From assembly GCA_035380125.1 (NCBI GenBank), contig DAOSWV010000013.1, forward strand, positions 1,140 through 65,139: a stretch of DNA of 64,000 nt. The letters are read 5' to 3'. Below the pieces are notes generated by a model that made no database searches, was not told where the DNA came from, and was given only the letters and a program-made list of their open reading frames with translations. The position numbers and the translations under genes were made by a program. Of this stretch, positions 11,508 through 58,233 are shown piece after piece (within the stretch, counting starts at the first letter, position 1; each line of letters starts with the position of its first letter). The stretch is from Oscillospiraceae bacterium (GTDB lineage Bacteria; Bacillota; Clostridia; Oscillospirales; JAKOTC01).

Positions 11508-11520
11508 TAATGAGAAAACA

Positions 11521-11558: not shown

Positions 11559-11571
11559 ACGCGATAACGTT

Positions 11572-12309: not shown

Positions 12310-12457
12310 AAAACATCTCCTTTCAAGGGTTTCACCCCATTGTATTTTACAGGCGCTTCTTTTGTTCCTTTGCAGTCACAACGGTTTCATCTTCGTTATA
12401 TAATGGGTTAGAAATCCAGCGGATTCTTATCCGTTTACATATGAAAGAGGAAAGATT
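12310..12457. promoter_or_regulatory. divergent promoter region of pair A/B
   Basis: For B: GTCACA (12375-12380), 18 nt, TATAAT (12399-12404). For A on the minus strand: TACAAT (complement of 12339-12344). The blocks CCCATTGTATTTT, GCAGTCACA and TATATAAT.GG are all repeated in the C/D intergenic region. Confidence 0.55.
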
Positions 12458-13288: not shown

Positions 13289-13321
13289 CTGATCGGCCAT
13301 AGAGAATTAGTATAAAAATGA

Positions 13322-13349
13322 ATCCGGCATACGTTGATACGAGCCGGAT
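13322..13349. terminator. hairpin between convergent genes B and C
   Basis: ATCCGGC (13322-13328) / GCCGGAT (13343-13349), a 7-bp stem with a 14-nt loop. T-rich sequence lies downstream. Confidence 0.35.
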
Positions 13350-13373
13350 GAAAAGGATTTTGTTTGATTTTTT

Positions 13374-14204: not shown

Positions 14205-14385
14205 AATAAAGCTCCTTCATACAATCTCATCCCATTGTATTTTTATTGTATCGGTTTTGTGCATGGCAGGCAGTCACAGATGGTGAAATAACGCTATATA
14301 ATAGGGTACGGGTTATGATACATGCAACCTGAATGTCTGAAAAACAAGATGTATTAAACAAGAACAGGGGAGGGTGAGAAATATT
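14205..14385. promoter_or_regulatory. divergent promoter region of pair C/D
   Basis: For D: GTCACA (14273-14278), 18 nt, TATAAT (14297-14302). For C: TACAAT (complement of 14234-14239). Spacing and motifs match the A/B region. Confidence 0.55.
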
Positions 14386-39005: not shown

Positions 39006-39044
39006 GAAAAAAGAACGGACTGCTGAGCAGTCCGTTCTTTTTTC
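39006..39044. terminator. bidirectional terminator
   Basis: AAAAAAGAACGGACTG-CTGAG-CAGTCCGTTCTTTTTT. Confidence 0.8.
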
Positions 39045-41022
39045 ATATCACGACGCAGGTAACATCTTCGGGATTTATGCGGATGTTTTTACCGGCTGCA
39101 TTAAATGTAGTTGTTTTACTGCTCTTATTCCAAAAAGCGAACATGCGTCTGTCGCTGTTTTGATACTCGGTGTACTGAACACCCTCGGGCACAACGAGCG
39201 CTGTCTCGCAGATATAGCGGCCGTGGTAGAAAAATTCGCGGTATTCGTCTTTCAGCGCGATCAGTTTCTTGATATAGGCGGCGTATTCGGGCAGATCCGC
39301 AATGGTACTGTTTCGTCCCCGGTAGATGGAGACGTCGAAGCGGAAACCGTGGATGAACGCATGGTTGAGCTCTTTTTTCCAGTCGACACGGCAGTCGTGC
39401 ACAAAACGATTGGTCATGATAACCTCAGGGAATGTGCGCAAAAACATCTGCGGAAACATTGTGTCCTGCCAGCGGTCGTTTTTATTGCGGCGATAAAAAT
39501 TGCCGAAGTCGCAGCCGTGCAGAAAGTCCGTCATGGCGCTGACGAGGTCGTTGGTGCATTCGGTGGCGAGCGCTTGTTCCGGATTGAGTAATTCGCGCAG
39601 GGCGAGAAAATTTTCGGAACGGTAGGTATAATCCATATCCACGCGCCTGCCGTGCCGGTGGTTTTCGTTGAAGCATAGGTGCGCGGCCCCGCCGAGCTGG
39701 TCGAAAAACAGCGCGTCCGGATTGAACGTCAGCTTGTATTTTCCGACGTTCACAAGCTGCTTCTGCCAGCCCCAGGTGGCTTGGCAGGCGCTTGAAAACG
39801 TTTTGTAGCCGTAATTGCTGAGCACCGTGCCGTCGTTGGAGAAACGGTAATGCTCCTCGTATTCGTTGCCGTCGATGTCAATACGGGCGATGTCGTGTCC
39901 CTGTTCGCGGTAAAAGTCGGTTTTTCGGTCGATCAGATTGCCGTTTGCGTATAAAATCACACGACCGCCGAGCCGGTGAATCTCTTCAACCGCCGCTTTC
40001 AGACCCTCTTCGCCGCCGAGATCATCATCGGCCTCGTAAATCGGGTAGTTGTTGTCGAAGCGGCCTTTCCACCAGCCGAAAACCAACAAAGTATCAAGTC
40101 CGGACTCTTTCCCTTCGCGGTAAATCCGCGGCAGGTCGGAATAGTTCCAGAATTTTTCGCCGAACTGGTGACGCATGATGATGCGCTGCCAGCCGGTCAT
40201 ATTCCGCACCCATTCGGGCGGCTGCGCGTGTTTGAAAAAGGTCTCTCCGGCAAATGCGCCGAAAATATCCGAACCGTTGCGCCAGTCGCCTTTCGTCAGC
40301 GAGACGACAACGGGTGCGCAGGTAAGCGTCTCGCCCTGTGCCGCAAAGGGATATTGGCAGACGGTGCTGACCAGACGGGGTTCGCTGCATTCACGGGGCT
40401 GTATCGCGGAGAGCATGGAAAACGACCGGCAGAGTTTATCATGGCGGCCGATGTATAAAAAGTTGCCTGCACTCTCAATGCCGAACCAGGACATTGAGGC
40501 CGGACGGGGATACAGCAAAATCGATTTGATCTCGTGATAATCCGCGCTCATATATTCGGTGTGGGTATTTTCAAGCGCTGCCCAGGGATTTTTAATCCGT
40601 TCGCCGAGTCCGTTCGGGCGCACAAGCACGTCATTTTCACGGACTTCATCGCAGACGGTGCCGAGGTCGATATAGGGATATTGGAACTCGTTGACACGGG
40701 CGGCGTCATGGTTGCTGATCTCGGATTCAAAAAACAGTGCGTCTTTATTTTGGACGATTCGAAGCGTCAGGGTTACTTCAAAACGCCGTCCGTCAGTGCC
40801 GATGACATGGTCGTAGGTAATCGTTGTGGTATTGCCGTTTACGGTCACACAGCCGGTTTGTTCGGAGGATTTGACGGTCATTTCCCGCCTGTATCCGTCG
40901 TCGAGCATCAGCCGCCAAAAGTCAGTATTCTGTCTGCCGCAAAGCGGGAGGTCTTTTGCGGACCAGATAAGGCGGTCTCCGTTTGGAGAAACGGTAAAAT
41001 TCAATTGGTTTTGAAACGCCAT
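39043..41022 (-). CDS. large cytoplasmic protein, putative glycoside-hydrolase-like TIM barrel (DUF6259-like)
   Basis: 659 aa with no signal peptide. The central part (LLVFGWWKGRFDNNYP, ILYANGNLID, FFDQLGG) resembles uncharacterised GH-like families. The assignment is from memory only. Confidence 0.4.
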   Translation of the reverse strand: MAFQNQLNFTVSPNGDRLIWSAKDLPLCGRQNTDFWRLMLDDGYRREMTVKSSEQTGCVTVNGNTTTITYDHVIGTDGRRFEVTLTLRIVQNKDALFFESEISNHDAARVNEFQYPYIDLGTVCDEVRENDVLVRPNGLGERIKNPWAALENTHTEYMSADYHEIKSILLYPRPASMSWFGIESAGNFLYIGRHDKLCRSFSMLSAIQPRECSEPRLVSTVCQYPFAAQGETLTCAPVVVSLTKGDWRNGSDIFGAFAGETFFKHAQPPEWVRNMTGWQRIIMRHQFGEKFWNYSDLPRIYREGKESGLDTLLVFGWWKGRFDNNYPIYEADDDLGGEEGLKAAVEEIHRLGGRVILYANGNLIDRKTDFYREQGHDIARIDIDGNEYEEHYRFSNDGTVLSNYGYKTFSSACQATWGWQKQLVNVGKYKLTFNPDALFFDQLGGAAHLCFNENHRHGRRVDMDYTYRSENFLALRELLNPEQALATECTNDLVSAMTDFLHGCDFGNFYRRNKNDRWQDTMFPQMFLRTFPEVIMTNRFVHDCRVDWKKELNHAFIHGFRFDVSIYRGRNSTIADLPEYAAYIKKLIALKDEYREFFYHGRYICETALVVPEGVQYTEYQNSDRRMFAFWNKSSKTTTFNAAGKNIRINPEDVTCVVI

Positions 41023-41110: not shown

Positions 41111-41139
41111 TAGACAAAAAATGAAAAATCACGTATAAT
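41111..41139 (+). promoter_or_regulatory. candidate promoter of the GT4/ATP-grasp operon
   Basis: TAGACA (41111-41116), 17 nt, TATAAT (41134-41139). Confidence 0.45.
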
Positions 41140-41219: not shown

Positions 41220-42386
41220 GTGGATTCGGCACAGAAAAAACCGAAGGTACTGATGACGGCTTCCGTTGCATCGATGATTGATTTATTCAATATGAGCAAC
41301 ATTGATGTTTTACAGTCAATGGGGTATGAAGTTCATGTGGCGGCTAATTTTCAAAGCGGCAATATCACCGATCAGAAACGGGTAGATGAATTCAAGGCGG
41401 AACTGGCCGCTCGCGGCATCAAAGTATACGATATTCCGGTGCCGAGAAACATTTTTGCTTTTAAAAAGATTGCAGAATCCGACCGGATGTTTCGAAAAAT
41501 TTATACGGAGAACCAATACCGGTTTGTCCACTGCCATTCCCCGATCGGCGGGGTTTTGGCGCGGCTTTGTGCACGGAAAGTTCGAAAAAAACAAGGCACA
41601 AAGATGGTATACACGGCGCATGGGTTCCATTTTTTCAATGGCGCACCGCTGCATTACTGGCTTTTTTACTTTCCCATCGAGTGGTATTGTTCTTTTTTCA
41701 CAGACGTTTTAATCACCATCAATCATGAGGATTTTCGCTTTGCCCAAAAGCATTTGCGTGCCAAAAAGACCACCTATGTGCAGGGCGTGGGCGTTGATTT
41801 ATTGCGGTTTTCCGAAGGTACGGCAGCGTTGCAGACCCTGCGAAAAGAACTCGGAATTCCTGAAGATGCTTTTGCGGTTATCACAGTGGGTGAATTATCT
41901 GCAAGAAAGAATCAACAGGTAATTTTAAAAGCAATCGCAGCGTCAAATCGGAATATTCATTACATATTGGTAGGCTTTGGGCAGGAAGAACATTATTTGC
42001 GCCGTTTGTCCGAAGAGTTTGGCATCACAGACCGGGTGCATTTTCTCGGATATCGAAGTGATGTTGCAGATCTGTATCACGCTGCCGATGTATTTTGTTT
42101 CCCGTCATTTCATGAGGGGTTATCGCTGTCGTTGATGGAGGCGATGGCTAGTGGGCTGTCGGTATTGTGTTCTGATATCCGAGGGAATCGGGATTTAATC
42201 GTCGATAAAAAAGGCGGTTTTCTCTATGCGCCGACGGACGTGTCGGCATTTGCCGAGGGATTGACGATCTTGGTGGATGATCCCTCATTGAGAGCGCGTT
42301 TCGGCGCATTTAACGCCGAACGGATTCGGGATTTTTCCTCCGAAGTCATCGGGGAAAAGATGCGGGGGATTTATCGGGAATTATGA
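41220..42386 (+). CDS. glycosyltransferase family 4
   Basis: GT-B C-terminal motif FCFPSFHEGLSLSLMEAMASGLSVLCSDIRGNRDLI. GTG start. Confidence 0.8.
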   Translation: MDSAQKKPKVLMTASVASMIDLFNMSNIDVLQSMGYEVHVAANFQSGNITDQKRVDEFKAELAARGIKVYDIPVPRNIFAFKKIAESDRMFRKIYTENQYRFVHCHSPIGGVLARLCARKVRKKQGTKMVYTAHGFHFFNGAPLHYWLFYFPIEWYCSFFTDVLITINHEDFRFAQKHLRAKKTTYVQGVGVDLLRFSEGTAALQTLRKELGIPEDAFAVITVGELSARKNQQVILKAIAASNRNIHYILVGFGQEEHYLRRLSEEFGITDRVHFLGYRSDVADLYHAADVFCFPSFHEGLSLSLMEAMASGLSVLCSDIRGNRDLIVDKKGGFLYAPTDVSAFAEGLTILVDDPSLRARFGAFNAERIRDFSSEVIGEKMRGIYREL

Positions 42387-43534
42387 AAAAGATCTTTTTT
42401 GTCCTCGGGGGAATGAGCCGGGGCGGCGCGGAACGGGTGATTTCAATTTTGGCGAACCGCTGTGCCCAAGACAATTGGGATGTCAGTGTTTTGATGCTGT
42501 TGACCAACCGCTGCGAATATCCGCTGAACCCCGCGATAAAATTGATTGATTTGACGGGCGGAGGCGGCTCCCGGATGAAAAAAGCGCCGTATTGGATCCG
42601 GGAACTCAGGGCTTTGATGCGTCTTGAAAAGCCGGACGTGGTGGTCTCGTTTGTCGCCCGTATTAACTTGCTCACGTTGTTTGCGGCAAGAGGATTGCAG
42701 CAGCGGGTAATTATCTCAGAGCGAAACGACCCTACTATGGACGGCAGAAGTGTTCTTGTCAAGTTTGCGACGAATCTGCTTTACTCAAAAGCCGACGGCA
42801 TTGTCTTTCAGACCGAGCGTGCAAAGAATTACTTTAAAAAGCGGATTGCGGAGAAAAGTGTGGTCATCGGCAACCCTGTTCAGGTAAGCATACAGGCAAA
42901 ATCGGAAAAACAGAATAAAATTGTCACGGCAGGGCGGTTGATGGCACAAAAAAACCATAAGATGCTCATCGACGCGTTTTCCCGGGTACATCAGGATTTT
43001 CCGGCGTGCAGGCTTTACATATACGGAGAAGGGGATTTACGCTGCAAGTTGGAAAAGCAGATCCGCGAACTCGGTTTGGAGGGATATGTCTTTTTACCCG
43101 GGAATATGGCGGATATCCACGAGCGTATTTCCGACGCAAAACTGTTTGTTTTATCTTCGGATTATGAGGGGCAATCCAATGCTTTATTGGAAGCGATGGC
43201 AATGGGTCTGCCGGTGATCTCGACCGACTGTGCCGGTTCGGACGAGGTGATCAGAGACGGCGAAAACGGTCTGCTTGTTCCGGTCGGAGACACGGATGCA
43301 ATGGCGGTAAGCATTGAAAAACTGCTCGGGAACGATGAATTATGCGCAATTATGGGTGCACAAGCGAAAAAAGACGTTAAAAAATTTGATGCGGGATATA
43401 TTCTCAGGCGGTGGTGTGATTTATTGATCGGAAGCGATAAAATCGAGACGGAGCGTGAGACGAATGAAACTCGAGACTCTCATCAAACAGACCGTGATGC
43501 GGCTGCTGCCGGCCAAATGGTGGGTAAAAATTGA
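42383..43534 (+). CDS. glycosyltransferase family 4
   Basis: GGAERV N-terminal motif. SSDYEGQSNALLEAMAMGLPVISTDCAGSDEVIRDGENGLLV. The non-conserved tail overlaps the next gene by 80 nt. Confidence 0.8.
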   Translation: MKKIFFVLGGMSRGGAERVISILANRCAQDNWDVSVLMLLTNRCEYPLNPAIKLIDLTGGGGSRMKKAPYWIRELRALMRLEKPDVVVSFVARINLLTLFAARGLQQRVIISERNDPTMDGRSVLVKFATNLLYSKADGIVFQTERAKNYFKKRIAEKSVVIGNPVQVSIQAKSEKQNKIVTAGRLMAQKNHKMLIDAFSRVHQDFPACRLYIYGEGDLRCKLEKQIRELGLEGYVFLPGNMADIHERISDAKLFVLSSDYEGQSNALLEAMAMGLPVISTDCAGSDEVIRDGENGLLVPVGDTDAMAVSIEKLLGNDELCAIMGAQAKKDVKKFDAGYILRRWCDLLIGSDKIETERETNETRDSHQTDRDAAAAGQMVGKN

Positions 43535-44354
43535 TTACCGATTCCATATGGGGCGAAAGTGCAACCTTAAGAACCCCCGGACATTCAACGAAAAACTCTG
43601 CTGGCTGAAGGTATATCACAAAGATAACGAGCGGACAAAGCTGGTGGACAAATATGCGGTGCGGCAATATATAGCCGATAAACTCGGACAAGCGTATGTA
43701 GTTCCGTTGTTGGGCGTTTGGAAACGGTTTGATGAGATTGATTTCAATACGCTTCCCGAACAATTTGTGCTGAAGCCGAACCACACTTCCGGTGATGTGT
43801 TTATCTGCGAGGACAAATCAAAGATTGATAAAGAAGTTCTGCGTGAAACGGTGAACAAGTGGATGCGGCGCAGGTATTATCATCAGGGTCGCGAAAGGGA
43901 ATATAAGAGAATCAAACCGCGCATTATTGCCGAAGAATATTTGACCGATCAAACCGGCCGTGGGGTGATGGATTATAAGTTTCTCTGTTTTAACGGAAAA
44001 CCCCGCTGTCTTTACACCTGTCAGGACCGCAGAGATGAGACCGGGTTGAAGATCAATTACTATGATATGCAATGGCAGCCTCTGCCTATTATGAAAAAGC
44101 ACAATATCATCGGCAAAACGATTGAGAAGCCTGCTTTTTTTGACGAGATGGTACACATCTGCGAACTTCTTTCAAACCCCTTTCCGTTCGTCCGGCTGGA
44201 TCTTTACGAGACCGGCGGAAAAATCTATTTCGGTGAGTTTACGTTCTGCCCCGACGCCGGAGTGAAGAAATTTGTCCCTGAGGAGTGGGATAAAACATTG
44301 GGGGATTGGTTGGAATTGCCGTATAAAACCGATGAATACGAGGGAACCGTATGA
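43455..44354 (+). CDS. TupA-like ATP-grasp amidoligase (1 of 3)
   Basis: Family pattern NLKNPRTFNEKLCWLKVY...DKYAVRQYI...LPEQFVLKPNHTSGD...DYKFLCFNGKP...RLDLYE..GKIYFGEFTF.P. Confidence 0.75.
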   Translation: MRRMKLETLIKQTVMRLLPAKWWVKIDYRFHMGRKCNLKNPRTFNEKLCWLKVYHKDNERTKLVDKYAVRQYIADKLGQAYVVPLLGVWKRFDEIDFNTLPEQFVLKPNHTSGDVFICEDKSKIDKEVLRETVNKWMRRRYYHQGREREYKRIKPRIIAEEYLTDQTGRGVMDYKFLCFNGKPRCLYTCQDRRDETGLKINYYDMQWQPLPIMKKHNIIGKTIEKPAFFDEMVHICELLSNPFPFVRLDLYETGGKIYFGEFTFCPDAGVKKFVPEEWDKTLGDWLELPYKTDEYEGTV

Positions 44355-45286
44355 GAGCGGAAAGTGTAAAATACTATTTAAAACATCCGCAGGCGTTTTT
44401 AATGCGGGTATCAGGAGCCGGATTGCTGAACTGGATACCTGATAAACCGTATCTTTTATGGTATTATCGTTTGATTATAAAAATGAGGCTCAATTTGAAG
44501 TCGCCGAAGACCTTTACTGAGAAAATTCAATGGCTCAAGCTTTATAACAGAACCCCGCTTCATACGCGGATTTCAGATAAATATGCCGTTCGGGAATACA
44601 TTGCAAATCGAGTCGGCATGGAATACACGGTGCCGCTGCTGGGCATCTGGAACACTTTTGAAGAGATTGATTTTGACGAACTTCCGGAGCAATTTGTATT
44701 GAAAACCACCCACGACTGCGGCGGGAACTACATCTGCAGGGATAAACGCTTATTGGATATCAGCGCCGCGAAAGATAAAATCGAGCGGCACTTGCGGCAC
44801 AATTATTACCCTTATTATCGGGAATGGGCATATAAAGATATCCGACCCCGCATTATTGCGGAGGAATATCTGGTCGATGAGAGCGGATATGAACTTAAAG
44901 ATTACAAATTTATGTGTTTTAACGGACATCCCAAGTATGTTAATGTCTGTAAAAACAGAGAGAGCCAAGCTCATCCGGCGGTTGACATGTTTGATATGCA
45001 GTGGAAACCCTTGGAGGATAAAATTAGATACAGGGATTATCAGCCCAGTGGCTGCGTTTTTGAACGACCGCAATCTTTTGAAAAAATGATTGAATTCTGC
45101 AAGATTCTCGCCAAGCCGTTTCCGTTCGTCCGGGTGGATTTTTACAATATTCAAGGCGAGATTTATATCGGTGAGCTTACCTTATATCCGGCTGCCGGGT
45201 ATGCGGTTTATGAGACAAACACGATGAATGAGACGGTGGGCAGTTGGTTGATACTGCCTGAAAGGAAAAAAGAACAAAAAGCGTGA
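44351..45286 (+). CDS. TupA-like ATP-grasp amidoligase (2 of 3)
   Basis: NLKSPKTFTEKIQWLKLY, LPEQFVLKTTHDCGG, DYKFMCFNGHP and VDFYNIQGEIYIGELTLYP. It overlaps the preceding gene by 4 nt. Confidence 0.75.
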   Translation: MRAESVKYYLKHPQAFLMRVSGAGLLNWIPDKPYLLWYYRLIIKMRLNLKSPKTFTEKIQWLKLYNRTPLHTRISDKYAVREYIANRVGMEYTVPLLGIWNTFEEIDFDELPEQFVLKTTHDCGGNYICRDKRLLDISAAKDKIERHLRHNYYPYYREWAYKDIRPRIIAEEYLVDESGYELKDYKFMCFNGHPKYVNVCKNRESQAHPAVDMFDMQWKPLEDKIRYRDYQPSGCVFERPQSFEKMIEFCKILAKPFPFVRVDFYNIQGEIYIGELTLYPAAGYAVYETNTMNETVGSWLILPERKKEQKA

Positions 45287-45302
45287 AAGGAATCGAAAAC
45301 GA

Positions 45303-46475
45303 ATGCGGGTTTTATTATATATCAATTCTCTGAGCAACGGCGGCGCTGAGCGGGTCATGTCGGTTTTAGCCAACGGACTGAATGCCCATGGGCATGATAT
45401 CGTATTGATTACGGATTATTATAGGGGGAACGAATATCAAATTCCGGATTCCGTTGAAAGAATTGTTTTAGTTGGAAAATTCGAAGAAAGACCTCCGGGA
45501 ATGTCTCGCAGCCGTAGTATTTTCAATATCAGAAACCTGCGTTTGCTATTTGAAATAATTCATCGAAATAATTCCAGTATAAAAAAATTGCGTACGCTTT
45601 GTATAGAGAGAAAGTTCGACGTTTTAATTTCATTTCTGCCCAAGAATAACTTTAGAGCGCTTTTAGCGGTAAGGCGTTTGAAAATTAAAAATTTGATTTC
45701 CGTCAGAAATGATCCTGGAAAAATATTTAAATCCCTGTGGCTCAGGAGATTGGTAAAGCTTCTGTATCGTTTTACCGACGGATGTGTATTTCAAACAGAA
45801 GAGCAGAAGAACCGATTCCCTGTGCAAAAACTAAAAAACTTTCGTATCATTCCGAACCCCGTTTCCGATGTGTTTTATCAAACGGAGCGCGCGGAAAGCG
45901 GACACAAAGACATTGTCGCTGTCGGGCGTTTGGAACCTCAAAAGAATTTTCCGATGTTGATCCGGGCGTTTGCAAGGATCGCGGATGATTTCCCAAACGA
46001 AAATCTGGTGATTTACGGGAAAGGAAAGTTGAAGGAAGAGTTGGCGGAACTCGCAAAAAAAATCGGTTTGTCTGATAGAATCCGGTTTCCCGGCAATGTA
46101 CCCGACATCGCCGAAAAGATAAAAAACGCGCGGCTGTTTGTTCTGAGTTCGGATTGGGAGGGGCTGCCGAACGCGCTGATGGAGAGTATGGCCATCGGAC
46201 TGCCGGTGATTGCGACGGATTGCGCGGGCGGAGGAGCACGCGCGTTGATTCATGACGGCGTAAACGGCCTGTTGATCCCAAAAGGCGACGAGCAGGCGTT
46301 GGCGAATGCCATGCGTAAATTGCTGGAAAGCCAAGCGCTTTCCGATGATCTCGGAGAAGCAGCAAAACAGAGCGCTCAGGCCTATAGGACGGACGAAATA
46401 GTCGCCCGGTGGGAGGAATATCTTCTGGAGATCGGAGGGGAAAATGACGGGCGAATCGATCAAACGATTTTTTAA
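45303..46475 (+). CDS. glycosyltransferase family 4 (paralogue of 42383-43534)
   Basis: GGAERV, SSDWEGLPNALMESMAIGLPVIATDCAGGGARALIHDGVNGLLI. Confidence 0.8.
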   Translation: MRVLLYINSLSNGGAERVMSVLANGLNAHGHDIVLITDYYRGNEYQIPDSVERIVLVGKFEERPPGMSRSRSIFNIRNLRLLFEIIHRNNSSIKKLRTLCIERKFDVLISFLPKNNFRALLAVRRLKIKNLISVRNDPGKIFKSLWLRRLVKLLYRFTDGCVFQTEEQKNRFPVQKLKNFRIIPNPVSDVFYQTERAESGHKDIVAVGRLEPQKNFPMLIRAFARIADDFPNENLVIYGKGKLKEELAELAKKIGLSDRIRFPGNVPDIAEKIKNARLFVLSSDWEGLPNALMESMAIGLPVIATDCAGGGARALIHDGVNGLLIPKGDEQALANAMRKLLESQALSDDLGEAAKQSAQAYRTDEIVARWEEYLLEIGGENDGRIDQTIF

Positions 46476-47382
46476 AAGTCCGGGGGCTGCGTTACAAATG
46501 TTGTCTTACGCGGGCCTGTTGTTTTGGCTGCCGGACAAACCGTATATTCAATTATTTTACCGCACGGCTTTTCACCGCAAGTTGAACTTGAGAGACCCGA
46601 AGACCTACAGCGAAAAAATCCAGTGGTTAAAATTATATCATCGCGACCCGCTGTATACGGTGCTCTCGGATAAATACGCCATGAGGGGTTATGCGTCTGA
46701 AATACTCGGCGACGATTATATGGTACCGCTTCTGGGCATTTGGGACACATTCGGGGAAATCAATTTCGAAAAGCTGCCGAATCAATTCGTACTCAAATGC
46801 ACCCGCGACAGCGGCTCAGTTATCATTTGCCGTGATAAAACGACATTTGATAAAGCAAAAGCAAAAACACGGCTTGAAAAAACAATGAAAAGGAATTATT
46901 ATCGAATCACCCGGGAATGGGGATACAAAAACATCCGGCCGCGCATTATTGCGGAGAAATATCTGTTTGATGAGAATGAATGCGGTTTAAAAGATTATAA
47001 ATTCACCTGTATGAACGGCGAACCCCGCTATCTGTTTACTTGCCAAAACAGAGGCGGAGAAGGCGGGCTTCAGGTGGACGCCTATAATATGCAGCTGCAG
47101 CATCTGGAACTAAGAGAAAAAAATTATGCAAACAGCCCGAAACCTTTTGCGGCGCCCGCATCATTAGAAAAAATGCTTCAAATCTGCAGGACCATTGCAA
47201 AACCGTTTCCGTTGATCCGCATTGATTTATATGACGTATGCGGTAGACCGTATATCGGAGAATTCACTTTTTATCCGGCGGGAGGATTAAACCGCTTTTA
47301 CCCCGAAGAATGGGACGATTACATCGGAAGTGGACTTATTTTACCTGAAAAAGATTCTGAAATCAAAAAACGGAGTATTTAA
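46444..47382 (+). CDS. TupA-like ATP-grasp amidoligase (3 of 3)
   Basis: NLRDPKTYSEKIQWLKLY, LPNQFVLKCTRDSGS, DYKFTCMNGEP and IDLYDVCGRPYIGEFTFYP. It overlaps the preceding GT4 gene by 32 nt. Confidence 0.75.
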   Translation: MTGESIKRFFKSPGAALQMLSYAGLLFWLPDKPYIQLFYRTAFHRKLNLRDPKTYSEKIQWLKLYHRDPLYTVLSDKYAMRGYASEILGDDYMVPLLGIWDTFGEINFEKLPNQFVLKCTRDSGSVIICRDKTTFDKAKAKTRLEKTMKRNYYRITREWGYKNIRPRIIAEKYLFDENECGLKDYKFTCMNGEPRYLFTCQNRGGEGGLQVDAYNMQLQHLELREKNYANSPKPFAAPASLEKMLQICRTIAKPFPLIRIDLYDVCGRPYIGEFTFYPAGGLNRFYPEEWDDYIGSGLILPEKDSEIKKRSI

Positions 47383-47384
47383 AA

Positions 47385-48557
47385 ATGAAGTGCAGAGAAC
47401 GGTTTGAACAAATTTATCATCATGAACCCGAAAGCATGGGATTTTGCCCCTATCGCGTTTGCCCTATCGGCGCGCATTCGGATCACCAATACGGAAAGAT
47501 TACAGGTTTTGCGATTGATCAGGGGATTCACATTGCTTATGCGCCCAAACAAAACGGAGTTATCGAATTGGTTTCGTTAAATTTTGATAAGCGGGCACAG
47601 TTTCACATTCATGAAGTGCCGAAGCAAAAACAAAACGACTGGGCAGATTATCTGCGCGGTGCAACACTTTTAATGGGCAAAAAATATCAGTTGCAAAAAG
47701 GTCTTGCAGGTGTGGTTGAAGGAGATCTGCCGATCGGCGGGCTTTCTTCGTCCGCGGCGGTAATCATCGCGTTTCTCAGTGCACTTTGTAAAGTGAACGA
47801 GATTATGCTTAGGCCGGAAGAGATGATTGAACTTGCATTGCGCGCCGAGAACGACTATGTGGGTGTGGCCTGCGGAACATTGGATCAGTCCTGTGAAATC
47901 TACAGTCGGAAAGATCATCTGCTTTATTTGGACACGAAAGACGACAGCCGAGAGCTGATTCCGGCAAACGTTGTGATGAAGCCCTATGAAATCGTCATCT
48001 TTTTCAGCGGTATTGAACGCATGTTGGGTGGTACGAAATACAATATGCGGGTAGATGAGTGCAAGGCGGCCGCTTATGCATTGATGGGTTTTTCGGGTAT
48101 GGAATACGGCGATTTTAAAGATGCGCGTTTACGGGATATCTCGCGGAAGGTTTTTGAGCGATATCAGAGAAAACTCCCGGAGAACTGGCGAAAACGGGCG
48201 GTGCATTTTTATACCGAATTCGAGCGGGTGGAACAAGGTGTTGAAGCCTGGCGGAAAGGCGATATCGAGAAATTTGGTCAACTGTGTTTTGAGAGCGGAA
48301 AAAGTTCCATTGTGAATTACGAGACCGGCTCGCCCGAACTGATCGCGCTTTATGAGATCATGCGCAAAACCGACGGCATTTACGGCGGGCGGTTTTCCGG
48401 CGCGGGATTCAAGGGCTGCTGCATGGCGCTCATTGATCCGGCATTTCGGGATAGTATCGAAAAAGCGGTCACGAGCGAATATTTAAAGCAATTTCCGAAC
48501 TTGGCGGATAAATTTTCGGTTCATTTTTGCCAAACCGCCGACGGCGTTCGGCTGTGA
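47385..48557 (+). CDS. GHMP-family sugar-1-kinase (galactokinase-like, possibly uronate kinase)
   Basis: Galactokinase-type N-terminal signature (YRVCPIGAHSDHQYG) and GHMP ATP motif LPIGGLSSSAAV. Confidence 0.7.
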   Translation: MKCRERFEQIYHHEPESMGFCPYRVCPIGAHSDHQYGKITGFAIDQGIHIAYAPKQNGVIELVSLNFDKRAQFHIHEVPKQKQNDWADYLRGATLLMGKKYQLQKGLAGVVEGDLPIGGLSSSAAVIIAFLSALCKVNEIMLRPEEMIELALRAENDYVGVACGTLDQSCEIYSRKDHLLYLDTKDDSRELIPANVVMKPYEIVIFFSGIERMLGGTKYNMRVDECKAAAYALMGFSGMEYGDFKDARLRDISRKVFERYQRKLPENWRKRAVHFYTEFERVEQGVEAWRKGDIEKFGQLCFESGKSSIVNYETGSPELIALYEIMRKTDGIYGGRFSGAGFKGCCMALIDPAFRDSIEKAVTSEYLKQFPNLADKFSVHFCQTADGVRL

Positions 48558-48565
48558 GAAGGGGA

Positions 48566-49579
48566 ATGAGCGTTTTGACAGTGCAATCTAAAATTTTAGT
48601 GACGGGCGCTGCGGGATTTATCGGGGCGGCGCTGTCGAAAAAATTGCTAGAGGCGGGATTGTCCGTCGCCGGTGTTGACAATCTCAACGATTATTACGAT
48701 GTAAAATTAAAATATGCCCGTCTGGATTTGTTAAAAGCATATCCGAATTTTACGTTTCACCGAATGGATTTGGCAGATAAAGCCGCAGTTGATGAACTGT
48801 TTGCAAAAGAGAAATTCGATATCGTCGTGCATCTGGCGGCGCAGGCGGGTGTGCGGTATTCCATCACCCATCCCGAGGCCTATATTCAAAGCAATATCGT
48901 CGGGTTTTTTAATATCCTCGAGGCCTGCCGCCATCACCCTGTGAAAAATCTGGTGTATGCGTCGAGTTCGTCGGTATACGGGGCGAATCAAAAAGTGCCG
49001 TATTCGGCCGAGGACAAGACCGATATGCCGGTCAGTTTGTATGCCGCAACCAAAAAAGCCGACGAGGCCATGGCCTACAGCTATGCGAAACTCTATCAAA
49101 TCCCGTCGGTCGGCCTGCGCTTTTTCACGGTTTACGGGCCGATGGGCCGTCCCGACATGGCCTATTTCAGTTTCACGGATAAGATGGTTCGGGGCGAAAA
49201 GATACCGCTTTTCAACTACGGCGAGATGAAGCGCGACTTCACTTATATCGACGACATCATCGAGGGCATTATCAACGTGATGCAAAAACCGCCTGTGCAG
49301 GACGAAAACGGCGCACCGCACAAGATTTACAACATCGGCAATAGTCATCCCGAAACCCTTACCGACTTTGTGGCGACATTGGAAAACTGCCTGATGACGG
49401 CGGGCGTCATCAAGCAGCCGGCGGAAAAAGAATATCTCCCGATGCAGCCCGGCGACGTCTTGCAGACCTATGCCGACGTCAGCGAACTGGAACGGGATTT
49501 CGGATTCAAACCCCGCACGAGCTTAAAAGACGGTCTGACCGCGTTTGCAAAGTGGTATAAAGAATATTATAAAATTTAA
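48566..49579 (+). CDS. NAD-dependent UDP-glucuronate 4-epimerase family protein
   Basis: ILVTGAAGFIG, DNLNDYYD..LK, YASSSSVYG, YAATKK. This is an extended SDR of the UDP-GlcA epimerase type. The start was trimmed to the ATG at 48566 (MSVLTVQSK). Confidence 0.8.
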   Translation: MSVLTVQSKILVTGAAGFIGAALSKKLLEAGLSVAGVDNLNDYYDVKLKYARLDLLKAYPNFTFHRMDLADKAAVDELFAKEKFDIVVHLAAQAGVRYSITHPEAYIQSNIVGFFNILEACRHHPVKNLVYASSSSVYGANQKVPYSAEDKTDMPVSLYAATKKADEAMAYSYAKLYQIPSVGLRFFTVYGPMGRPDMAYFSFTDKMVRGEKIPLFNYGEMKRDFTYIDDIIEGIINVMQKPPVQDENGAPHKIYNIGNSHPETLTDFVATLENCLMTAGVIKQPAEKEYLPMQPGDVLQTYADVSELERDFGFKPRTSLKDGLTAFAKWYKEYYKI

Positions 49580-51003
49580 TGGGTTCTCGGCGGGAGCCAT
49601 AACCAATGCGACGGGACGGCGGGCCAATCGTAGTCGATGAACGATTGGAGCGCGGGACTGTCGCTTTTTTTCAGCACCGAGAACGCGGCACGCAGCGCCC
49701 ACAGATAAAACGACTGGTCCAAGATGTTGGCGTCACCGGCGCGCGATAGGGTCTCGTAAGAAGCGGAATGGTGCAGGTATTCGCGGTTTTGGCGCGAGAC
49801 CAACACGCCGTCTTTGTTGATTTTATCGTTTAAAATAGCAATGGCGGCTTTTTCTAGCGCAGTTTCGATTTCTTTGCGGCGGTAATCCTGCCGCTGATAA
49901 TTAATTGCCAACAAGGTCATGCAGTCGACGTCTTTGCAGTTGTCGGATTCGGAATCAAGGCGGTCGGGCGAATCCAAACCGAAGCGATGATCGTTGACAT
50001 TTTGCAGAGAGAGCAGAGTATCGGTCTGGGCTTTTCGGACGTTTTCGGGGATCGGATGCCCGTCGTAATCGTAAAACCAGAGCTGGTGCGCGCCGCCCAT
50101 GACCGGAACCGAGACCCATTCGAATTTTAAATCGCTGCGGTCGTTGGGCAAGATGTTTCCGGAAAAACCGTTATTCCAGATTCTTTTCGGGTCGCCGTTA
50201 AGTTCTCCGTACCAAAAACCCGTGACGCCGAAGTTTTCGTCATGCCACTTGTACCAAACCTCGTCGAGCATCTTTCGCGCCTGTGCAGCGGTAGGCGTTC
50301 CGGATTCCCACTGCGTAATCTGCCACAAAATACAGGCCGGGTACCAGAACTCGTTGCCCATCCACCAGGGGTTGTGGCGGCGGTAGTTGCCGTCTTTTTG
50401 GTAGGCGTTCCAGTCGCGTCTCCAAAGGTATTCTTCAAGATAGGATTGCTCCAAAAACCGCCCGGTCATGCTGCCGGAGGAAAGCGGATATTTCGATTTG
50501 CCGCCGAGCAGCATCATGGTCGGACACAGTGAGGACACAAAATGATCGTGCATATGGTACCACGGGTGGGTACAGAGCGAAAAATCCCGCCAAGCACGAT
50601 GATTTTTCGGGCGCACATACGGGCCGAGATAATAGCCGGTTTCCCGGTCTTGATATTGATTGAAATAGGCGATCCAGGCGTCTTTGTTTTCCTGCGGCAG
50701 CTGCTCGGTCAGCCCGTAAAAATAATAGGTCTCGAGTGCCGAATGGCCGCCTTCCAGCGATTCGCAGCCGCCCGGTGTCGAAGAAAACCGCCAGTCGTTT
50801 TCAGCCATGCGTTGTGAAAATGATTTTTTCAAGACACGAATCTGATCGTCGGTTTTGATAAAAGCCCTTGCTGCAGGCGTCAGCACGCTGTTTTCGCCGC
50901 TTGACTCCCAACCGACAGCATTGAAAACCCCGTTCGAAGGACAACAGTTCTCCAGAAAAGCCAGGGTATTGTTTTTAAGCGTCATGAAGTCAGTCATATT
51001 CAC
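49576..51003 (-). CDS. Trp-rich cytoplasmic protein of unknown function
   Basis: 475-aa ORF starting 3 nt after the upstream GT2 stop, so it is in the same operon. No signal peptide. No family recognised. Confidence 0.7.
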   Translation of the reverse strand: MNMTDFMTLKNNTLAFLENCCPSNGVFNAVGWESSGENSVLTPAARAFIKTDDQIRVLKKSFSQRMAENDWRFSSTPGGCESLEGGHSALETYYFYGLTEQLPQENKDAWIAYFNQYQDRETGYYLGPYVRPKNHRAWRDFSLCTHPWYHMHDHFVSSLCPTMMLLGGKSKYPLSSGSMTGRFLEQSYLEEYLWRRDWNAYQKDGNYRRHNPWWMGNEFWYPACILWQITQWESGTPTAAQARKMLDEVWYKWHDENFGVTGFWYGELNGDPKRIWNNGFSGNILPNDRSDLKFEWVSVPVMGGAHQLWFYDYDGHPIPENVRKAQTDTLLSLQNVNDHRFGLDSPDRLDSESDNCKDVDCMTLLAINYQRQDYRRKEIETALEKAAIAILNDKINKDGVLVSRQNREYLHHSASYETLSRAGDANILDQSFYLWALRAAFSVLKKSDSPALQSFIDYDWPAVPSHWLWLPPRTH

Positions 51004-51006
51004 TTT

Positions 51007-52110
51007 TCACTCTCCTATACGGCTTTTTGAGATACGGATCCGCCGAAAGACCTCTTTGGAGCCACCGGTCCGGAAAGCGCTGAAAATGGCCCGGGAATAA
51101 GCGACGGGGAAGGTCAGCGCTTTCCATACCGTCAGCCGGCGGGCGAGTTTCGGCATAATGGGATTCCCCCGCAAAATCCGTCGTATTGCCGAATCTGAAG
51201 CGGGAGAGGGTATATATCCTCTTTTCAATCCGGTCAGTTCCAACTTTTCGAGCGCACCGTTTTTGAGTGTGGCATAGTATTCTCGGAACACAGCAGCGCT
51301 TTTGCAGGTAGTCAGAAAACTCGTATTCATAATCGCATTCATCGAACAGACTCCGCGCTTAACTTGATTGTAAAACGGCAAAGAAGCGGCGAAATCGTGC
51401 AGCAGCAGTGTTGATTCGATACGGCACAACGGTGCTTTATCGAGGGTGTCTTCAATACTGGTTCCGGTGCCGATTCGATACAGCATAAGTTTGATATCCG
51501 ACAGCACAATCCGGTCTGCCAGCAGCATCAATGAGAGCAGATAGACATAATCTTCACAGTTTCTCAGGGATGTAAATTGAATTCCGGATTCCTTTAAAAA
51601 TGAACGCCGAAAGATTTTCGAATGCACACAGATTTTAAATTTCAATGCGAAAAATTCAGGATCGTCACGCCAAGAAAACGGATGCCCGATCGGCGGACGA
51701 TCCGCATAAAAAATTTCGGTCGGGATAATGATCTCACCGGTCTGATGCTGATAAATATCACTACAGAATTCGACCATATCAGCATTGCTTGCGTATGCGA
51801 ATTCTACGGCGGGAGCAAGTTTTTGGTCGTATAAAAAATCATCTGCATCTAAAAAGAGGATGTATTCGCCAACGGTGGCGGCAAGTCCTGTGTTTCTGGC
51901 GGATCCGACTCCTCGGTTTTGCTGGTGAATGACTTTGACACGCACATCCTTTTCGGCATATCCGTCGAGAATCAAGCCCGAAGAATCGGTTGAGCCGTCG
52001 TCGATCGCAATGATTTCAAACTCATCAAGGCCTTGATTCAACACACTGTCAAGGCATTGGCACAAGTACATTTCCTTGTTGTATACAGGAATGATAACCG
52101 AGAGTTTCAA
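51007..52110 (-). CDS. glycosyltransferase family 2 with a conserved C-terminal extension (paralogue 3)
   Basis: SVIIPVYNKEMYL..CLDSVLNQ...IIAIDDGSTD and LDADD (DxD). Confidence 0.85.
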   Translation of the reverse strand: MKLSVIIPVYNKEMYLCQCLDSVLNQGLDEFEIIAIDDGSTDSSGLILDGYAEKDVRVKVIHQQNRGVGSARNTGLAATVGEYILFLDADDFLYDQKLAPAVEFAYASNADMVEFCSDIYQHQTGEIIIPTEIFYADRPPIGHPFSWRDDPEFFALKFKICVHSKIFRRSFLKESGIQFTSLRNCEDYVYLLSLMLLADRIVLSDIKLMLYRIGTGTSIEDTLDKAPLCRIESTLLLHDFAASLPFYNQVKRGVCSMNAIMNTSFLTTCKSAAVFREYYATLKNGALEKLELTGLKRGYIPSPASDSAIRRILRGNPIMPKLARRLTVWKALTFPVAYSRAIFSAFRTGGSKEVFRRIRISKSRIGE

Positions 52111-52125
52111 ACTGAAATCATCCTT

Positions 52126-53271
52126 TCATAGGGAGTGCTTTCCTTTATGTACAGTGGAACAATGCGCATCATCTTTTTGCAAAGAGAGGCGGCGTCGAAT
52201 TTCTGCCGGACCGTTATGGAAAAGCCGATAGAAAAACCACCGCACGGATCCGCCGAAAAAGGTGATGCCCTTCCAGAACCGGATGGTTTTGCGGGCATTT
52301 TTCGGCATTGCGGGGTTTCCACGCAAAATGCGTCTGACCGCATAATCGGCGAAGGGAGAATGCAGATATCCGCGAGGCAATCCGAACAATTCCTCCCGTT
52401 CGAGCGCGCCGTTTTTTAAGGCATTGTAATATTCCCGGAATGCTTTTGCGGTACGGCAGGAGGATAAAAATCCGATATGGATATGCGCATTAATTCGAGC
52501 GACGCCTTTTTTGATCTGGGAATAAAACGGCTGAGTTGCCGCGAAATCGTGAAATGCGTCAGTGGCTTCAATGCGGCCACAGGGGTCGCTTTCGAGAAGG
52601 TCTTCTATGCTATCGCCGATATTGACCCGGTAATTACAGAGAAAAAGATCGGAGCAGACAATCTTTTTCGAGAGAATCAGATGAGAAAATGTATGATCAA
52701 AGTCCTCGGAGTTGTTGGCAGCTCTGAATTTAACACCGGAGTTTTGCAGCAAAGCGCGGCGATATAATTTTGAATTTACGCCGGAATAGAAAAAGAGAAA
52801 GAAATCATCAGGAAAATCATGCCATGAAAACACTCTGCCGGATTCGGGCGGTTTCAGATAAGAGGCGTAGTGCAGCGGTTGAGACGTTCCGGTTTTATCA
52901 TTATATTCGTCGATTTGAAAAACGGCGGTATCAGCGTCATGGGTGACGGCGAATTGATAAGCTGCTCCGAGTCGGTTTTTATGCAGAAAGTCGTCTGCGT
53001 CGAGAAAAAGGATATATTCACCGACGGCCAATTCCAAACCCGCATTACGCGCATAGCCGCAGGAGGAATTCTTTTGGTGAATGACGCTGACGCGGGGGTC
53101 TTTGGCGGCATATTCGTCGAGAATTTTGCTTGAGGAATCCGTTGAGCCGTCATCTACAGCAATCAATTCAAGGGAATCAAGGTTTTGGCTTAGGACGCTG
53201 TCAATACATTGATGCAGGTATTTTTCGGCGTTATAAACCGGAGTAATGATTGAAATTTTGATGTTTTCCAT
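52126..53271 (-). CDS. glycosyltransferase family 2 with a conserved C-terminal extension (paralogue 2)
   Basis: SIITPVYNAEKYL..CIDSVLSQ...LIAVDDGSTD and LDADD. The start was trimmed to MENIKIS at 53271. Confidence 0.85.
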   Translation of the reverse strand: MENIKISIITPVYNAEKYLHQCIDSVLSQNLDSLELIAVDDGSTDSSSKILDEYAAKDPRVSVIHQKNSSCGYARNAGLELAVGEYILFLDADDFLHKNRLGAAYQFAVTHDADTAVFQIDEYNDKTGTSQPLHYASYLKPPESGRVFSWHDFPDDFFLFFYSGVNSKLYRRALLQNSGVKFRAANNSEDFDHTFSHLILSKKIVCSDLFLCNYRVNIGDSIEDLLESDPCGRIEATDAFHDFAATQPFYSQIKKGVARINAHIHIGFLSSCRTAKAFREYYNALKNGALEREELFGLPRGYLHSPFADYAVRRILRGNPAMPKNARKTIRFWKGITFFGGSVRWFFYRLFHNGPAEIRRRLSLQKDDAHCSTVHKGKHSL

Positions 53272-53329
53272 AATTGTCCCTTTTTGAACCTCCAAGAGTG
53301 GTCTTTGGGTTATTTAATCTTTGATAATT

Positions 53330-54421
53330 TTATTTTAGATGTTTTAAATGTTTAAACGTATGGCTAAAACCGTTTTCAAACGTCCGCGTGAAGAACCAGA
53401 CTAGGCCCGGAATGAGGAAGGTCACTTCTTTCCAAAATAAAATATTTCTTTTTGCGTTTTTGGGCATAAAAGGCCCGAAGTATCTAATATGTCTCATTTC
53501 GGAGGAGATAAAGCGAGAATAAATATATTTTTTCGGAAGGTCTGTCAGTTCCATATGGCGTAGACCTTCGTCGTGAAGAGCAATGTACAGGGCTCTGAAT
53601 GCTGCAGCGGTTTTATAATTAGAGAAAAATTCGTTCATAGATTTTGCGTTGAGATTGGCAATACCGCGTTTGATTTTCGGAAACCAAGGGAGGGATGCTG
53701 CAAAATCATGGATTGCCTCATTTGCGTAGAGGGTACACAGCGGATTTTTTTCACGCCCGTCGGTGATGCTGGTGCCGGTTCTGATACGGTAGTGCATCGT
53801 TGTGATATCGGAACAAACAACACGTTGTGCCAAAATCAGATTACAGAAGACAAAAAACACGTCATTGCAATTTGCCAGCGGCATAAACTCAATACCGGTT
53901 TCTTTGAGGAATTCGCGGCGGAAGAATTTTGCGCAGATAATGCCGGAAAACATCAAAGGAAACCGGTCGGGATCGTCATGTATGGAAAAAACCGTACCGT
54001 ATGGAGGATGCGGAATCAAATGAACGTTATGGGGCGTCTCAAAGACGCCGATATCATCGCAGTAATGATTCATCAAAAATACGGCGACATCGGCATCATG
54101 GGATTCGGCAAATTCATAAGCGCTTTTCAGACAGTTTTCGGGCATAAAGTCATCCGCATCAAAGAAGGTCACATAGTTTCCGGTTGCCAACGCCATTCCA
54201 TGATTTCTGGCCGGTCCCGCTCCTTGGTTTGATTGACGGATGACTTTGACTCTGGAGTCTTTTTGGGCGTATTCGTCGAGAATTATGTAGGAATTGTCGG
54301 TCGAACCGTCGTCTACTGCAATAATTTCAAAATCCATAAGGTCTTGATTCAAGATACTGTCAAGACATTGATTCAAATATTTCGCAGCGTTGTAAACGGG
54401 AATAACAACTGACAATTCCAT
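53330..54421 (-). CDS. glycosyltransferase family 2 with a conserved C-terminal extension (paralogue 1)
   Basis: SVVIPVYNAAKYL..CLDSILNQ...IIAVDDGSTD and FDADD. Confidence 0.85.
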   Translation of the reverse strand: MELSVVIPVYNAAKYLNQCLDSILNQDLMDFEIIAVDDGSTDNSYIILDEYAQKDSRVKVIRQSNQGAGPARNHGMALATGNYVTFFDADDFMPENCLKSAYEFAESHDADVAVFLMNHYCDDIGVFETPHNVHLIPHPPYGTVFSIHDDPDRFPLMFSGIICAKFFRREFLKETGIEFMPLANCNDVFFVFCNLILAQRVVCSDITTMHYRIRTGTSITDGREKNPLCTLYANEAIHDFAASLPWFPKIKRGIANLNAKSMNEFFSNYKTAAAFRALYIALHDEGLRHMELTDLPKKYIYSRFISSEMRHIRYFGPFMPKNAKRNILFWKEVTFLIPGLVWFFTRTFENGFSHTFKHLKHLK

Positions 54422-57056: not shown

Positions 57057-57139
57057 AAAATCACCCGAATTAATTAAATTTGCCGCAAAAGCAGGGAAGG
57101 TGTGAAGGATAAAAAAGCGAAACGGGATTGTATTTGAAT

Positions 57140-58183: not shown

Positions 58184-58233
58184 AACCGCCCTTTCGTGCA
58201 TATTGTATTCGTTTTGCGGCCTTGTATGCCGGT

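Follow-up and report, generated by a model that had tools for sequence, protein, structure and literature searches.

The TupA-like ligases take their name from TupA of Bacillus halodurans C-125, whose teichuronopeptide is an acidic wall polymer of uronic acid and amino acids. The one enzyme of this family to have been characterised biochemically, Cj1438C of Campylobacter jejuni HS:2, belongs to the same Pfam family (PF14305) as the ligases described here and forms an ATP-dependent amide on the C6 carboxylate of glucuronic acid (GlcA) in a growing surface polysaccharide, the capsule (PMC11800379). In plants, a salvage pathway to UDP-galacturonic acid (UDP-GalA) employs the galacturonokinase GalAK (At3g10700, EC 2.7.1.44), a galactokinase-like GHMP kinase, together with UDP-sugar pyrophosphorylase (USP; PMC8636097). 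Described UDP-GlcA 4-epimerases include Uge/Gla of Klebsiella, Cap1J of Streptococcus pneumoniae, BcUGAepi of Bacillus cereus and MoeE5. Here we describe an eight-gene operon, at 41220-49579 on the + strand, that brings together three TupA-like ligases, three glycosyltransferases of family GT4, a galactokinase-like kinase and a UDP-GlcA 4-epimerase. It lies in a 64,000-nucleotide (nt) stretch of DNA (the window), part of contig 13 (DAOSWV010000013.1) of an Oscillospiraceae bacterium (GCA_035380125.1; hereafter G000). The window genome is a metagenome-assembled genome (MAG) of 2.76 Mb in 46 contigs and is 96.9% complete.

The window ligases resemble Cj1438C in working alongside glycosyltransferases. 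However, Cj1438C is fused to a GT2 polymerising transferase and serves the ABC-transporter-dependent capsule of a Gram-negative bacterium, whereas the window, from a Gram-positive-type spore former, has three free-standing ligases interleaved with GT4 genes, in an operon without genes for making an amine donor. With B. halodurans TupA the Pfam family is the only link, drawn without sequence comparison to TupA itself, and the window has no poly-gamma-glutamate genes. The kinase, like GalAK, is a galactokinase-like GHMP kinase, and the epimerase appears to be of the same type as the four bacterial enzymes named above. We read the operon as a detached module that adds sugars to, and places amides on, a cell-surface heteropolysaccharide whose membrane machinery is encoded elsewhere in the genome, and put the probability of this reading at roughly 0.6. 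The enzymes of the operon most likely act on undecaprenyl-diphosphate-linked intermediates. From 5' to 3', the promoter-like site and the eight genes are as follows:

41111..41139 (+): sigma-A-type promoter-like site, TAGACA, 17 nt, TATAAT, about 80 nt upstream of GT4a
41220..42386 (+): GT4a, 388 residues, glycosyltransferase of family GT4 (GT-B); PF00534, E 2e-40, and GT4 N-terminal domains
42383..43534 (+): GT4b, 383 residues, GT4 glycosyltransferase; PF00534, E 2e-39
43464..44354 (+): Tup1, TupA-like ATP-grasp ligase; PF14305, E 3e-67, 227 bits, profile positions 1-239 of 241
44351..45286 (+): Tup2, 311 residues, TupA-like ATP-grasp ligase; PF14305, E 9e-62, 209 bits
45303..46475 (+): GT4c, 390 residues, GT4 glycosyltransferase; PF00534, E 2e-42
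46444..47382 (+): Tup3, 312 residues, TupA-like ATP-grasp ligase; PF14305, E 1e-56, 189 bits
47385..48557 (+): GHMP anomeric sugar kinase, galactokinase-like, 390 residues; PF10509, PF00288 and PF08544
48566..49579 (+): UDP-glucuronate 4-epimerase, extended short-chain dehydrogenase/reductase (SDR) of the Gla/Uge/Cap1J type, 337 residues; PF01370, E 2e-60

The list of open reading frames (ORFs) and the Pfam matches bear out the gene content and enzyme assignments of the preliminary description of this DNA, and equally its claim of a single tight operon. The successive junctions measure -4, about -71, -4, +16, -32, +2 and +8 nt, the largest overlap being that of the 3' end of GT4b with the start of Tup1. 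These figures take ATG 43464, with GGAG upstream, as the likelier start of Tup1 (its ORF opens at GTG 43455) and ATG 48566 as that of the epimerase (its ORF opens at TTG 48527). At the far end, the stop codon of the epimerase overlaps that of a convergent gene, W475 (49576-51003, -). The predicted promoter matches the consensus at 11 of 12 positions; in G002, a genome of the same genus, the pair aligns as TGGACA ... TATAAT, and in another, G001, it is weaker (TCGATA ... TAGAAT). The GTG start of GT4a aligns with the ATG of its G002 counterpart. Inspection by eye and comparison with consensus revealed no sigma-E- or sigma-K-like element upstream of the operon, and the conserved sigma-A-like promoter suggests vegetative expression. 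The source sequencing runs are DNA from activated-sludge and anaerobic-digester metagenomes, and among the runs listed as carrying operon DNA there is no RNA dataset.

One reason to assign the operon to a surface polysaccharide is that homologous modules in other bacteria sit with priming machinery. We surveyed 73 TupA-like loci of named genomes. A priming transferase lies no more than 10 kb away in at least 28 of them, a minimum because many contigs are short; 20 of the 73 have an epimerase at least 50% identical to that of the window, 14 encode more than one TupA-like protein and three loci encode three. One locus, L044, from a Christensenellaceae MAG, is collinear with the window: it runs priming transferase, ATPgrasp_ST, PGA_cap, a GT4a-like gene (41% identity), a GT4b-like gene (45%), TupA, TupA and GT4, and continues through Wzy_C, TupA and a pyruvyl transferase to a polytopic, flippase-like protein of 504 residues. 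The order GT4a-like, GT4b-like, TupA, TupA, GT4, TupA is thus that of the window, at 40-45% identity. Two further loci, L011 and L035, have three TupA-like genes and a 57-58% identical epimerase, as in the window. A priming transferase and polytopic Wzy/Wzx-like proteins stand beside or within the module of L044 and of L035, whereas the window and its two genus relatives have none of them nearby; L011 has the polytopic proteins only, no priming transferase being detected in the 17 kb examined. Relative to these three loci, the window adds the sugar kinase. Loci with several TupA-like genes interleaved with GT4 genes are common in Clostridia.

The neighbourhoods of GT4a point the same way. From a search of 400 genomes of the same order, we examined 13 of the best homologues outside the genus (36-45% identity). 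In 11 of these 13 loci, which come from other families of the order, a Bac_transf priming transferase lies within four genes of the GT4a homologue, and the same 11 also hold polytopic Wzx- or Wzy-like proteins. Because so many of its homologues adjoin a priming transferase, GT4a is probably the transferase that follows priming and adds the second sugar onto a lipid-linked primer. The preliminary description had held that its own proposal would fall if relatives carried the operon inside a canonical capsule locus; this is largely what L044, itself a MAG, and the 11 GT4a loci reveal.

All three transferases combine an N-terminal PF13439 or PF13579 domain with a C-terminal PF00534 or PF13692 domain, and none reaches the cut-off of a specific NCBIfam equivalog. 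The nearest NCBIfam models for GT4b and GT4c are PglH and PglJ, both far under cut-off (for GT4b, 155 and 142 bits, respectively). GT4c is 38% identical to GT4b over its full length. GT4a is 68-70% and GT4b 62-64% identical to the proteins encoded in G001 and G002, where GT4a occupies the same chromosomal site; GT4b is 45% identical to its positional counterpart in L044, and GT4c was not found in the G001 and G002 loci. No 19-residue window in any glycosyltransferase or ligase of the operon reaches transmembrane-grade hydrophobicity, and the sole hydrophobic stretch among the eight proteins is the buried ATP-binding GHMP motif of the kinase. The transferases are thus soluble, as had been stated from the sequence.

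The three ligases are predicted to be catalytically competent. Each covers the PF14305 (ATPgrasp_TupA) profile from position 1 to about 239 of 241, far above the gathering cut-off of 25 bits, and all three retain the 29 columns that are at least 93% conserved over 89 homologues, Tup3 with conservative changes at two of them. In Tup2 the kept positions include K118, K132, E171, D184, K186, R261, D263 and E275, charged residues that would serve ATP or Mg binding. Tup1-3 are old paralogues, Tup2 being 51% identical to Tup3 and 43% to Tup1. In a tree of the family, Tup1 falls in a clade with the lone TupA-like genes of G001 and G002 (support 1.0), whereas Tup2 and Tup3 are sisters (support 0.99); neither G001 nor G002 was found to hold a Tup2 orthologue. 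A sequence search of the PDB with Tup2 returned no meaningful match and no solved structure of the family. With the 29 family positions kept and the chemistry of Cj1438C as precedent (PMC11800379), the earlier forecast of a uronic-acid glycan with several amide-linked substituents is a sound one.

Where, then, is the membrane machinery? The preliminary description had found no priming or Wzx/Wzy machinery in the window and had left two options, namely that these functions are encoded elsewhere or that the acceptor is intracellular. Searches of the whole genome by family confirm the observation, placing no Bac_transf, Glycos_transf_4, MOP flippase (PF01943, PF13440), Wzy_C or ABC2_membrane (PF01061) match on contig 13. 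One correction is due: the window does hold an ABC-2-type transporter (PF12698) at 22.4-26 kb and two MsbA-like ABC exporters at 28-31.6 kb. None of these three is a polysaccharide exporter of the Wzm/TagG type; ORFs between 15.3 and 22.2 kb were not run individually against Pfam. The genome-wide search for priming transferases and flippases that had been proposed as a check yields two Bac_transf priming transferases (C23:26033 and C31:29287) and a single Wzx, along with a weak Wzy_C match in an eight-helix protein and one Glycos_transf_4 match, on contig 7, that is taken to be MraY. Of the two options, the first is therefore the one that the genome favours, since it encodes two priming transferases, Wzx, a Wzy-like protein, Wzz/CpsD and LCP; the second finds no such support. 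As the operon has no priming transferase, Wzx or Wzy on its contig, it is not a self-contained Wzx/Wzy locus and fits a Wzx/Wzy system only as a detached module.

Most of this machinery lies on contig 23, where the region at 5.5-30 kb encodes Wzz, a CpsD-like ATPase/kinase, an LCP ligase, a priming transferase, a glycerophosphotransferase, GT4 enzymes, a Wzy-like protein and Wzx, by its gene content a complete cps-type Wzx/Wzy locus. Its LCP ligase is the only one identified, PF03816 not having been searched genome-wide. The priming transferase of contig 31 (C31:29263-29841), an EPS_sugtrans-like protein of 192 residues, has no transferase genes adjoining. It is 86-89% identical in all four genus genomes (orthologues in G001 C14, G002 C23 and G003 C274) and in each lies within 2 kb of a contig end, beside an ORF of 1619 residues. 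A neighbouring stretch that assembles poorly may conceal its partner genes. Co-variation of the contig 31 gene with the operon was not seen, the gene being present in all four genomes.

Within the genus, the syntenic site was compared in four genomes, with these arrangements:

G003: msrAB, antiporter, then convergent W475 and HMGL-like genes, without glycan genes
G002: GT4a-GT4b-Tup1, facing W475
G001: GT4a-GT4b-Tup1-kinase, facing the HMGL-like gene
Window genome: DUF6259 on one side of the eight-gene operon and three GT2 genes on the other

The module varies between strains around a genus core of GT4a-GT4b-Tup1. Core proteins are 57-70% identical, against 82-93% for the flanking housekeeping genes; beyond the core, the window genome has Tup2-GT4c-Tup3 and the epimerase. 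The kinase occurs in exactly those three genus genomes that have a TupA-like gene.

The epimerase assignment draws on strong homology. In the PDB, the best match is 5u4q (406 bits), which we take to be a Klebsiella epimerase and which its depositors named 'dTDP-glucose 4,6-dehydratase', ahead of BcUGAepi (6zl6; 173 bits) and MoeE5 (131 bits); scores are lower against WbgU, WbpP and GalE (80-143 bits) and against dTDP-glucose dehydratases (at most about 107 bits). JGI annotates homologues at 70-75% identity as UDP-glucuronate 4-epimerase, and the G002 protein, 70% identical, is likewise encoded next to the kinase. The supply of UDP-uronic acids for this enzyme is less straightforward. No PF03721 dehydrogenase was found above cut-off in G000 (96.9% complete) or in G001, and to our knowledge all UDP-sugar 6-dehydrogenases (Ugd) fall in that family. 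The window genome thus has the epimerase, and in both genomes there are ligases presumed to require a sugar carboxylate, without a detected enzyme to make one on a UDP-sugar. The window genome does encode the uronate isomerase UxaC, so that free hexuronates are presumably present in the cytoplasm.

The kinase is a candidate for filling this gap. It falls below every galactokinase equivalog cut-off (211 against 227 bits for TIGR00131; 225 against 443, 218 against 385 and 201 against 499 for the others), and in the ESM Atlas it falls among generic 'GHMP kinase/galactokinase' clusters without structure. Aligned with three solved galactokinases, its motif PYRVCPIGAHSDHQ stands opposite the GalK motif PGRVNLIGEHTDY, that is, GAH in place of GEH; against the galactokinase signature GEHxDY it thus reads GAHSDH where GalK has GEHTDY. 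The Arg, the catalytic Asp and the C4-sensing Tyr of the KYN motif are kept. In plant galacturonokinase, Ala reportedly occupies the position of the galactokinase Glu and a Tyr sets C4 specificity, the change of this Ala to Glu being said to kill activity.

Digester, gut and rumen metagenomes encode relatives of the kinase on over 580 stretches, of which 80 loci (64-72% identical) were kept; counts use the 74 loci above 60% identity. In 70 of these 74 the signature G-x-H-x-DH could be located, with GAH in every one, the other four being off-pattern. An NTP_transferase of about 240 residues lies within three genes of the kinase in 62 loci, and a Gla-type epimerase (56-74% identical) does so in 25. 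A representative arrangement, L047, holds a Wzy (EpsG), TupA, a Wzx-like ORF in frame into the kinase, NTP_transferase and epimerase. Because of the GAH signature and these usual nucleotidyltransferase and epimerase neighbours, we consider the kinase a putative galacturonate (uronate) 1-kinase acting in uronate salvage, with odds a little better than even. The bacterial family would differ from the plant pathway in its partner, which is a small RmlA/GalU-like nucleotidyltransferase and not a USP-type enzyme, and which was not found in the genus. The published work found on galacturonokinase or glucuronokinase comprised plant and zebrafish studies and a promiscuous Solitalea GalK/GPUT pair, with no assay of a bacterial member found. 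Two side observations concern these relatives. In L047 (12337-15048), the polytopic Wzx-like ORF reads without a stop into a 66% identical kinase that has its own Met, and may be a flippase-kinase fusion. In G002 (C30, L185, 654-11447), the kinase-epimerase pair ends a nucleotide-sugar block with a Ugd-family dehydrogenase, a protein of 799 residues distantly matching a GHMP kinase (23% identity), a second SDR and four further ORFs, and is followed directly by a seven-helix membrane protein; the near-identical L092 has a Polysacc_synt_2 dehydratase at the matching position.

The alternative for this part of the system is that the kinase is an ordinary or promiscuous galactokinase, or an N-acetylgalactosamine or arabinose 1-kinase, acting on a neutral sugar, and that the draft genome missed a dehydrogenase gene whose product would supply the ligases with their carboxylate. 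Its score of 211 bits is not far from the 227-bit TIGR00131 cut-off, promiscuous pairs of bacterial galactokinase and uridylyltransferase are documented (PMC11267548), a genome 96.9% complete in 46 contigs leaves room for a missed gene, and Ugd stands beside the kinase module in some relatives. However, the signature Glu is Ala in all 70 relatives in which it was located, a UDP-GlcA 4-epimerase orthologue lies beside the kinase in a third of the relatives' loci (25 of 74), and two genomes, G000 and G001, independently combine TupA-like ligases and the kinase with the lack of a PF03721 match above cut-off. A second galactokinase-like gene of the window genome lies on contig 6 (C6:126-1427); its product of 433 residues reads GNHTDH, scores under all galactokinase cut-offs and has no galT adjoining. 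On balance, we regard a neutral-sugar galactokinase as possible and rather unlikely.

A tentative scheme for the detached module can be drawn from these parts. Free galacturonate or a related uronate, taken up as the presence of UxaC implies for hexuronates, would be phosphorylated at C1 by the GAH-type GHMP kinase, and the sugar-1-phosphate converted to UDP-uronate by a nucleotidyltransferase; this second step, whose enzyme stands beside the kinase in most relatives, is the weakest link. The epimerase would interconvert UDP-GalA and UDP-GlcA. Judging from the neighbourhoods in relatives, priming on undecaprenyl phosphate would fall to the orphan transferase of contig 31 or the cps transferase of contig 23, after which, on the cytoplasmic side of the membrane, GT4a would add the next sugar and GT4b and GT4c would extend the chain. 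By analogy with Cj1438C, the TupA-like ligases would activate uronate C6 carboxylates as acyl-phosphates and couple them to amines such as amino acids or amino-alcohol phosphates, the three old paralogues implying as many as three distinct amines or positions. The Wzx, Wzy-like and LCP proteins of contig 23 would flip and polymerise the units and attach the polymer to the wall; alternatively, the module may decorate the repeat unit of the contig 23 locus itself.

Several observations weigh against the scheme. In none of the three genus genomes that carry the operon does it have a linked priming transferase, flippase or polymerase, so detachment is conserved and the partners in trans can only be guessed. 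G003, which has no operon, conserves the contig 31 priming transferase to the same degree. The sole Wzx and the sole Wzy-like gene sit in a locus with transferases of its own, and Wzx and Wzy are usually specific to one repeat unit. On the supply side, no dedicated nucleotidyltransferase for the kinase product was found in the genus, the best genomic matches to the L047 enzyme being RmlA, GlgC, a GlmU-like protein and a nucleotidyltransferase-mutase fusion from contig 26, all at 23-33% identity. The absence of Ugd means 'not found' in a 46-contig MAG and is not proven. Ugd adjoins the kinase module in some metagenome loci, so the kinase is not simply a replacement for it, and the likeness drawn between the GAH alanine and plant galacturonokinase is tentative.

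Among alternatives for the operon as a whole, the one that survives best is that the GT4 enzymes work without a lipid carrier, in the cytoplasm or the mother cell, building an amidated uronic-acid glycan on a protein or on the spore surface. Glycosylation of the Bacillus subtilis spore crust offers a precedent, and candidate acceptors would include the S/T-rich proteins encoded at 11.5-15.3 kb. An acceptor of this kind would account for the lack of linked priming and export genes throughout the genus, a detachment kept in three genomes. The organism is an endospore former (SpoIVA match, 388 bits), the region at 41-59 kb encodes seven glycosyltransferases and no membrane protein, and GT4b and GT4c give partial matches to the protein O-glycosyltransferases SdgA/SdgB, at 94-110 bits and far under cut-off. 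Against this stand the closest non-genus homologues of GT4a and the collinear L044, which lie in loci with a priming transferase and Wzy/Wzx-type proteins. The solubility of the transferases, stressed in the preliminary description, is no evidence for an intracellular acceptor: GT4 enzymes such as PglH and PglJ, which act on undecaprenyl-diphosphate intermediates, likewise lack membrane segments. Its suggestion of a role in the spore or mother cell finds positive support in nothing but the spore-former status of the organism. Judged by eye and by consensus, the promoter upstream resembles a sigma-A site, is conserved and is accompanied by no sigma-E- or sigma-K-like element, and the neighbours are msrAB, a cation antiporter and an HMGL-like synthase and not a spore-surface cluster. 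The S/T-rich proteins, its other proposed acceptor, have an adjacent GT4-like gene of their own, conserved with them in G001. We therefore hold carrier-independent glycosylation to be improbable. Its most specific form, in which galacturonate salvaged by a bacterial galacturonokinase in a genome without Ugd ends up in an oligo-uronide with three amides on a protein or spore acceptor, is marginally less probable again.

A membrane glycolipid is a still more doubtful product. Here the core GT4a-GT4b-Tup1 would be responsible: its two GT4 enzymes would glycosylate diacylglycerol in succession and the uronic-acid head group would be amidated, after the manner of BgsA/BgsB or LafA/LafB, lipoteichoic-acid anchor synthases that need no priming transferase or Wzx-type flippase. 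A consecutive pair of soluble GT4 enzymes without a priming transferase is the typical layout of a glycolipid-anchor operon, and GT4a does match models for IagA/BgsA, Mgs and N-acetylglucosamine-phosphatidylglycerol synthase, at 44-63 bits. These matches, however, are far under cut-offs of 400-480 bits and no better than those to many other GT4 models, and GT4a homologues across the order adjoin priming transferases. The TupA loci argue likewise, at least 28 of 73 having a priming transferase within 10 kb and none being recognisable as an operon for a glycolipid anchor. As no flagellin was found in the genome, a flagellin glycosylation island is ruled out.

The surroundings of the operon hold further glycan-related genes. 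W475, a Trp-rich protein of 475 residues with no Pfam match, is 84% identical in G002 and G003; although its stop codon overlaps that of the epimerase, it probably belongs to neither glycan operon. Conservation at 84-93% in G003, which has no glycosyltransferase or ligase at the site, rules out both W475 and the HMGL-like gene as parts of the system. Upstream and divergent from the operon, a DUF6259 protein of 659 residues (39043-41022, -) is ruled out as a conserved partner, being missing from the syntenic site in G001, G002 and G003; it was apparently acquired along with the expansion in the window genome. Between W475 and the HMGL-like gene lie three tandem GT2 paralogues (51007-54421, -; 46-50% mutual identity); G002 has one GT2 gene at the site, split into ORFs of 234 and 147 residues, and G001 and G003 have none. 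The trio resembles another cassette-type insertion into this hotspot. The HMGL-like synthase (54426-55874, -), with 91-93% identity throughout the genus, has a perfect TTGACA-17-TATAAT upstream of it at 55955-55927, so placed that the inserted GT2 genes would be read from this housekeeping-type promoter.

Farther downstream, a Core-2/I-branching (GT14-like) enzyme, a D-2-hydroxyacid dehydrogenase (87% conserved in G002) and a class I methyltransferase (56169-59001, -) lie between the GT2 operon and Tad-type pilus genes at 59.5-63.9 kb (two genes for T2SSF, one for T2SSE and one ParA/TadZ-like). At 10203-15276, a weak GT4-like gene (434 residues; PF00534, E 4e-7) stands beside four paralogues of 245-300 residues that share a conserved helical N-terminal segment; three have poly-Ser/Thr linkers, two have Cys-rich C-termini ending in CC, and neither of the two that were searched has a Pfam match. 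G001 keeps the GT4-like gene (73%) together with one of the paralogues (37%). These S/T-rich proteins could be O-glycosylated surface or spore proteins with a transferase of their own.

What is new here is the conserved detachment of the module, the rise in ligase number from one to three among genomes of one genus, and a genome without detected Ugd that makes salvage testable; otherwise this is a fairly ordinary variable surface-glycan module. Amide-capped uronic acids alter the charge and antigenicity of bacterial surfaces, and with one TupA-like ligase so far characterised, three diverged, free-standing ligases in one operon provide a handy set for finding the determinants of amine specificity. 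An epimerase, uronate-dependent ligases and a GAH-type kinase in a genome with no detected Ugd make it a natural test case for the recycling of uronates to UDP-uronic acids in bacteria. Finally, the series within the genus, from no module through a three- or four-gene core to eight genes, shows how the complexity of a glycan may grow by cassette insertion at one site.

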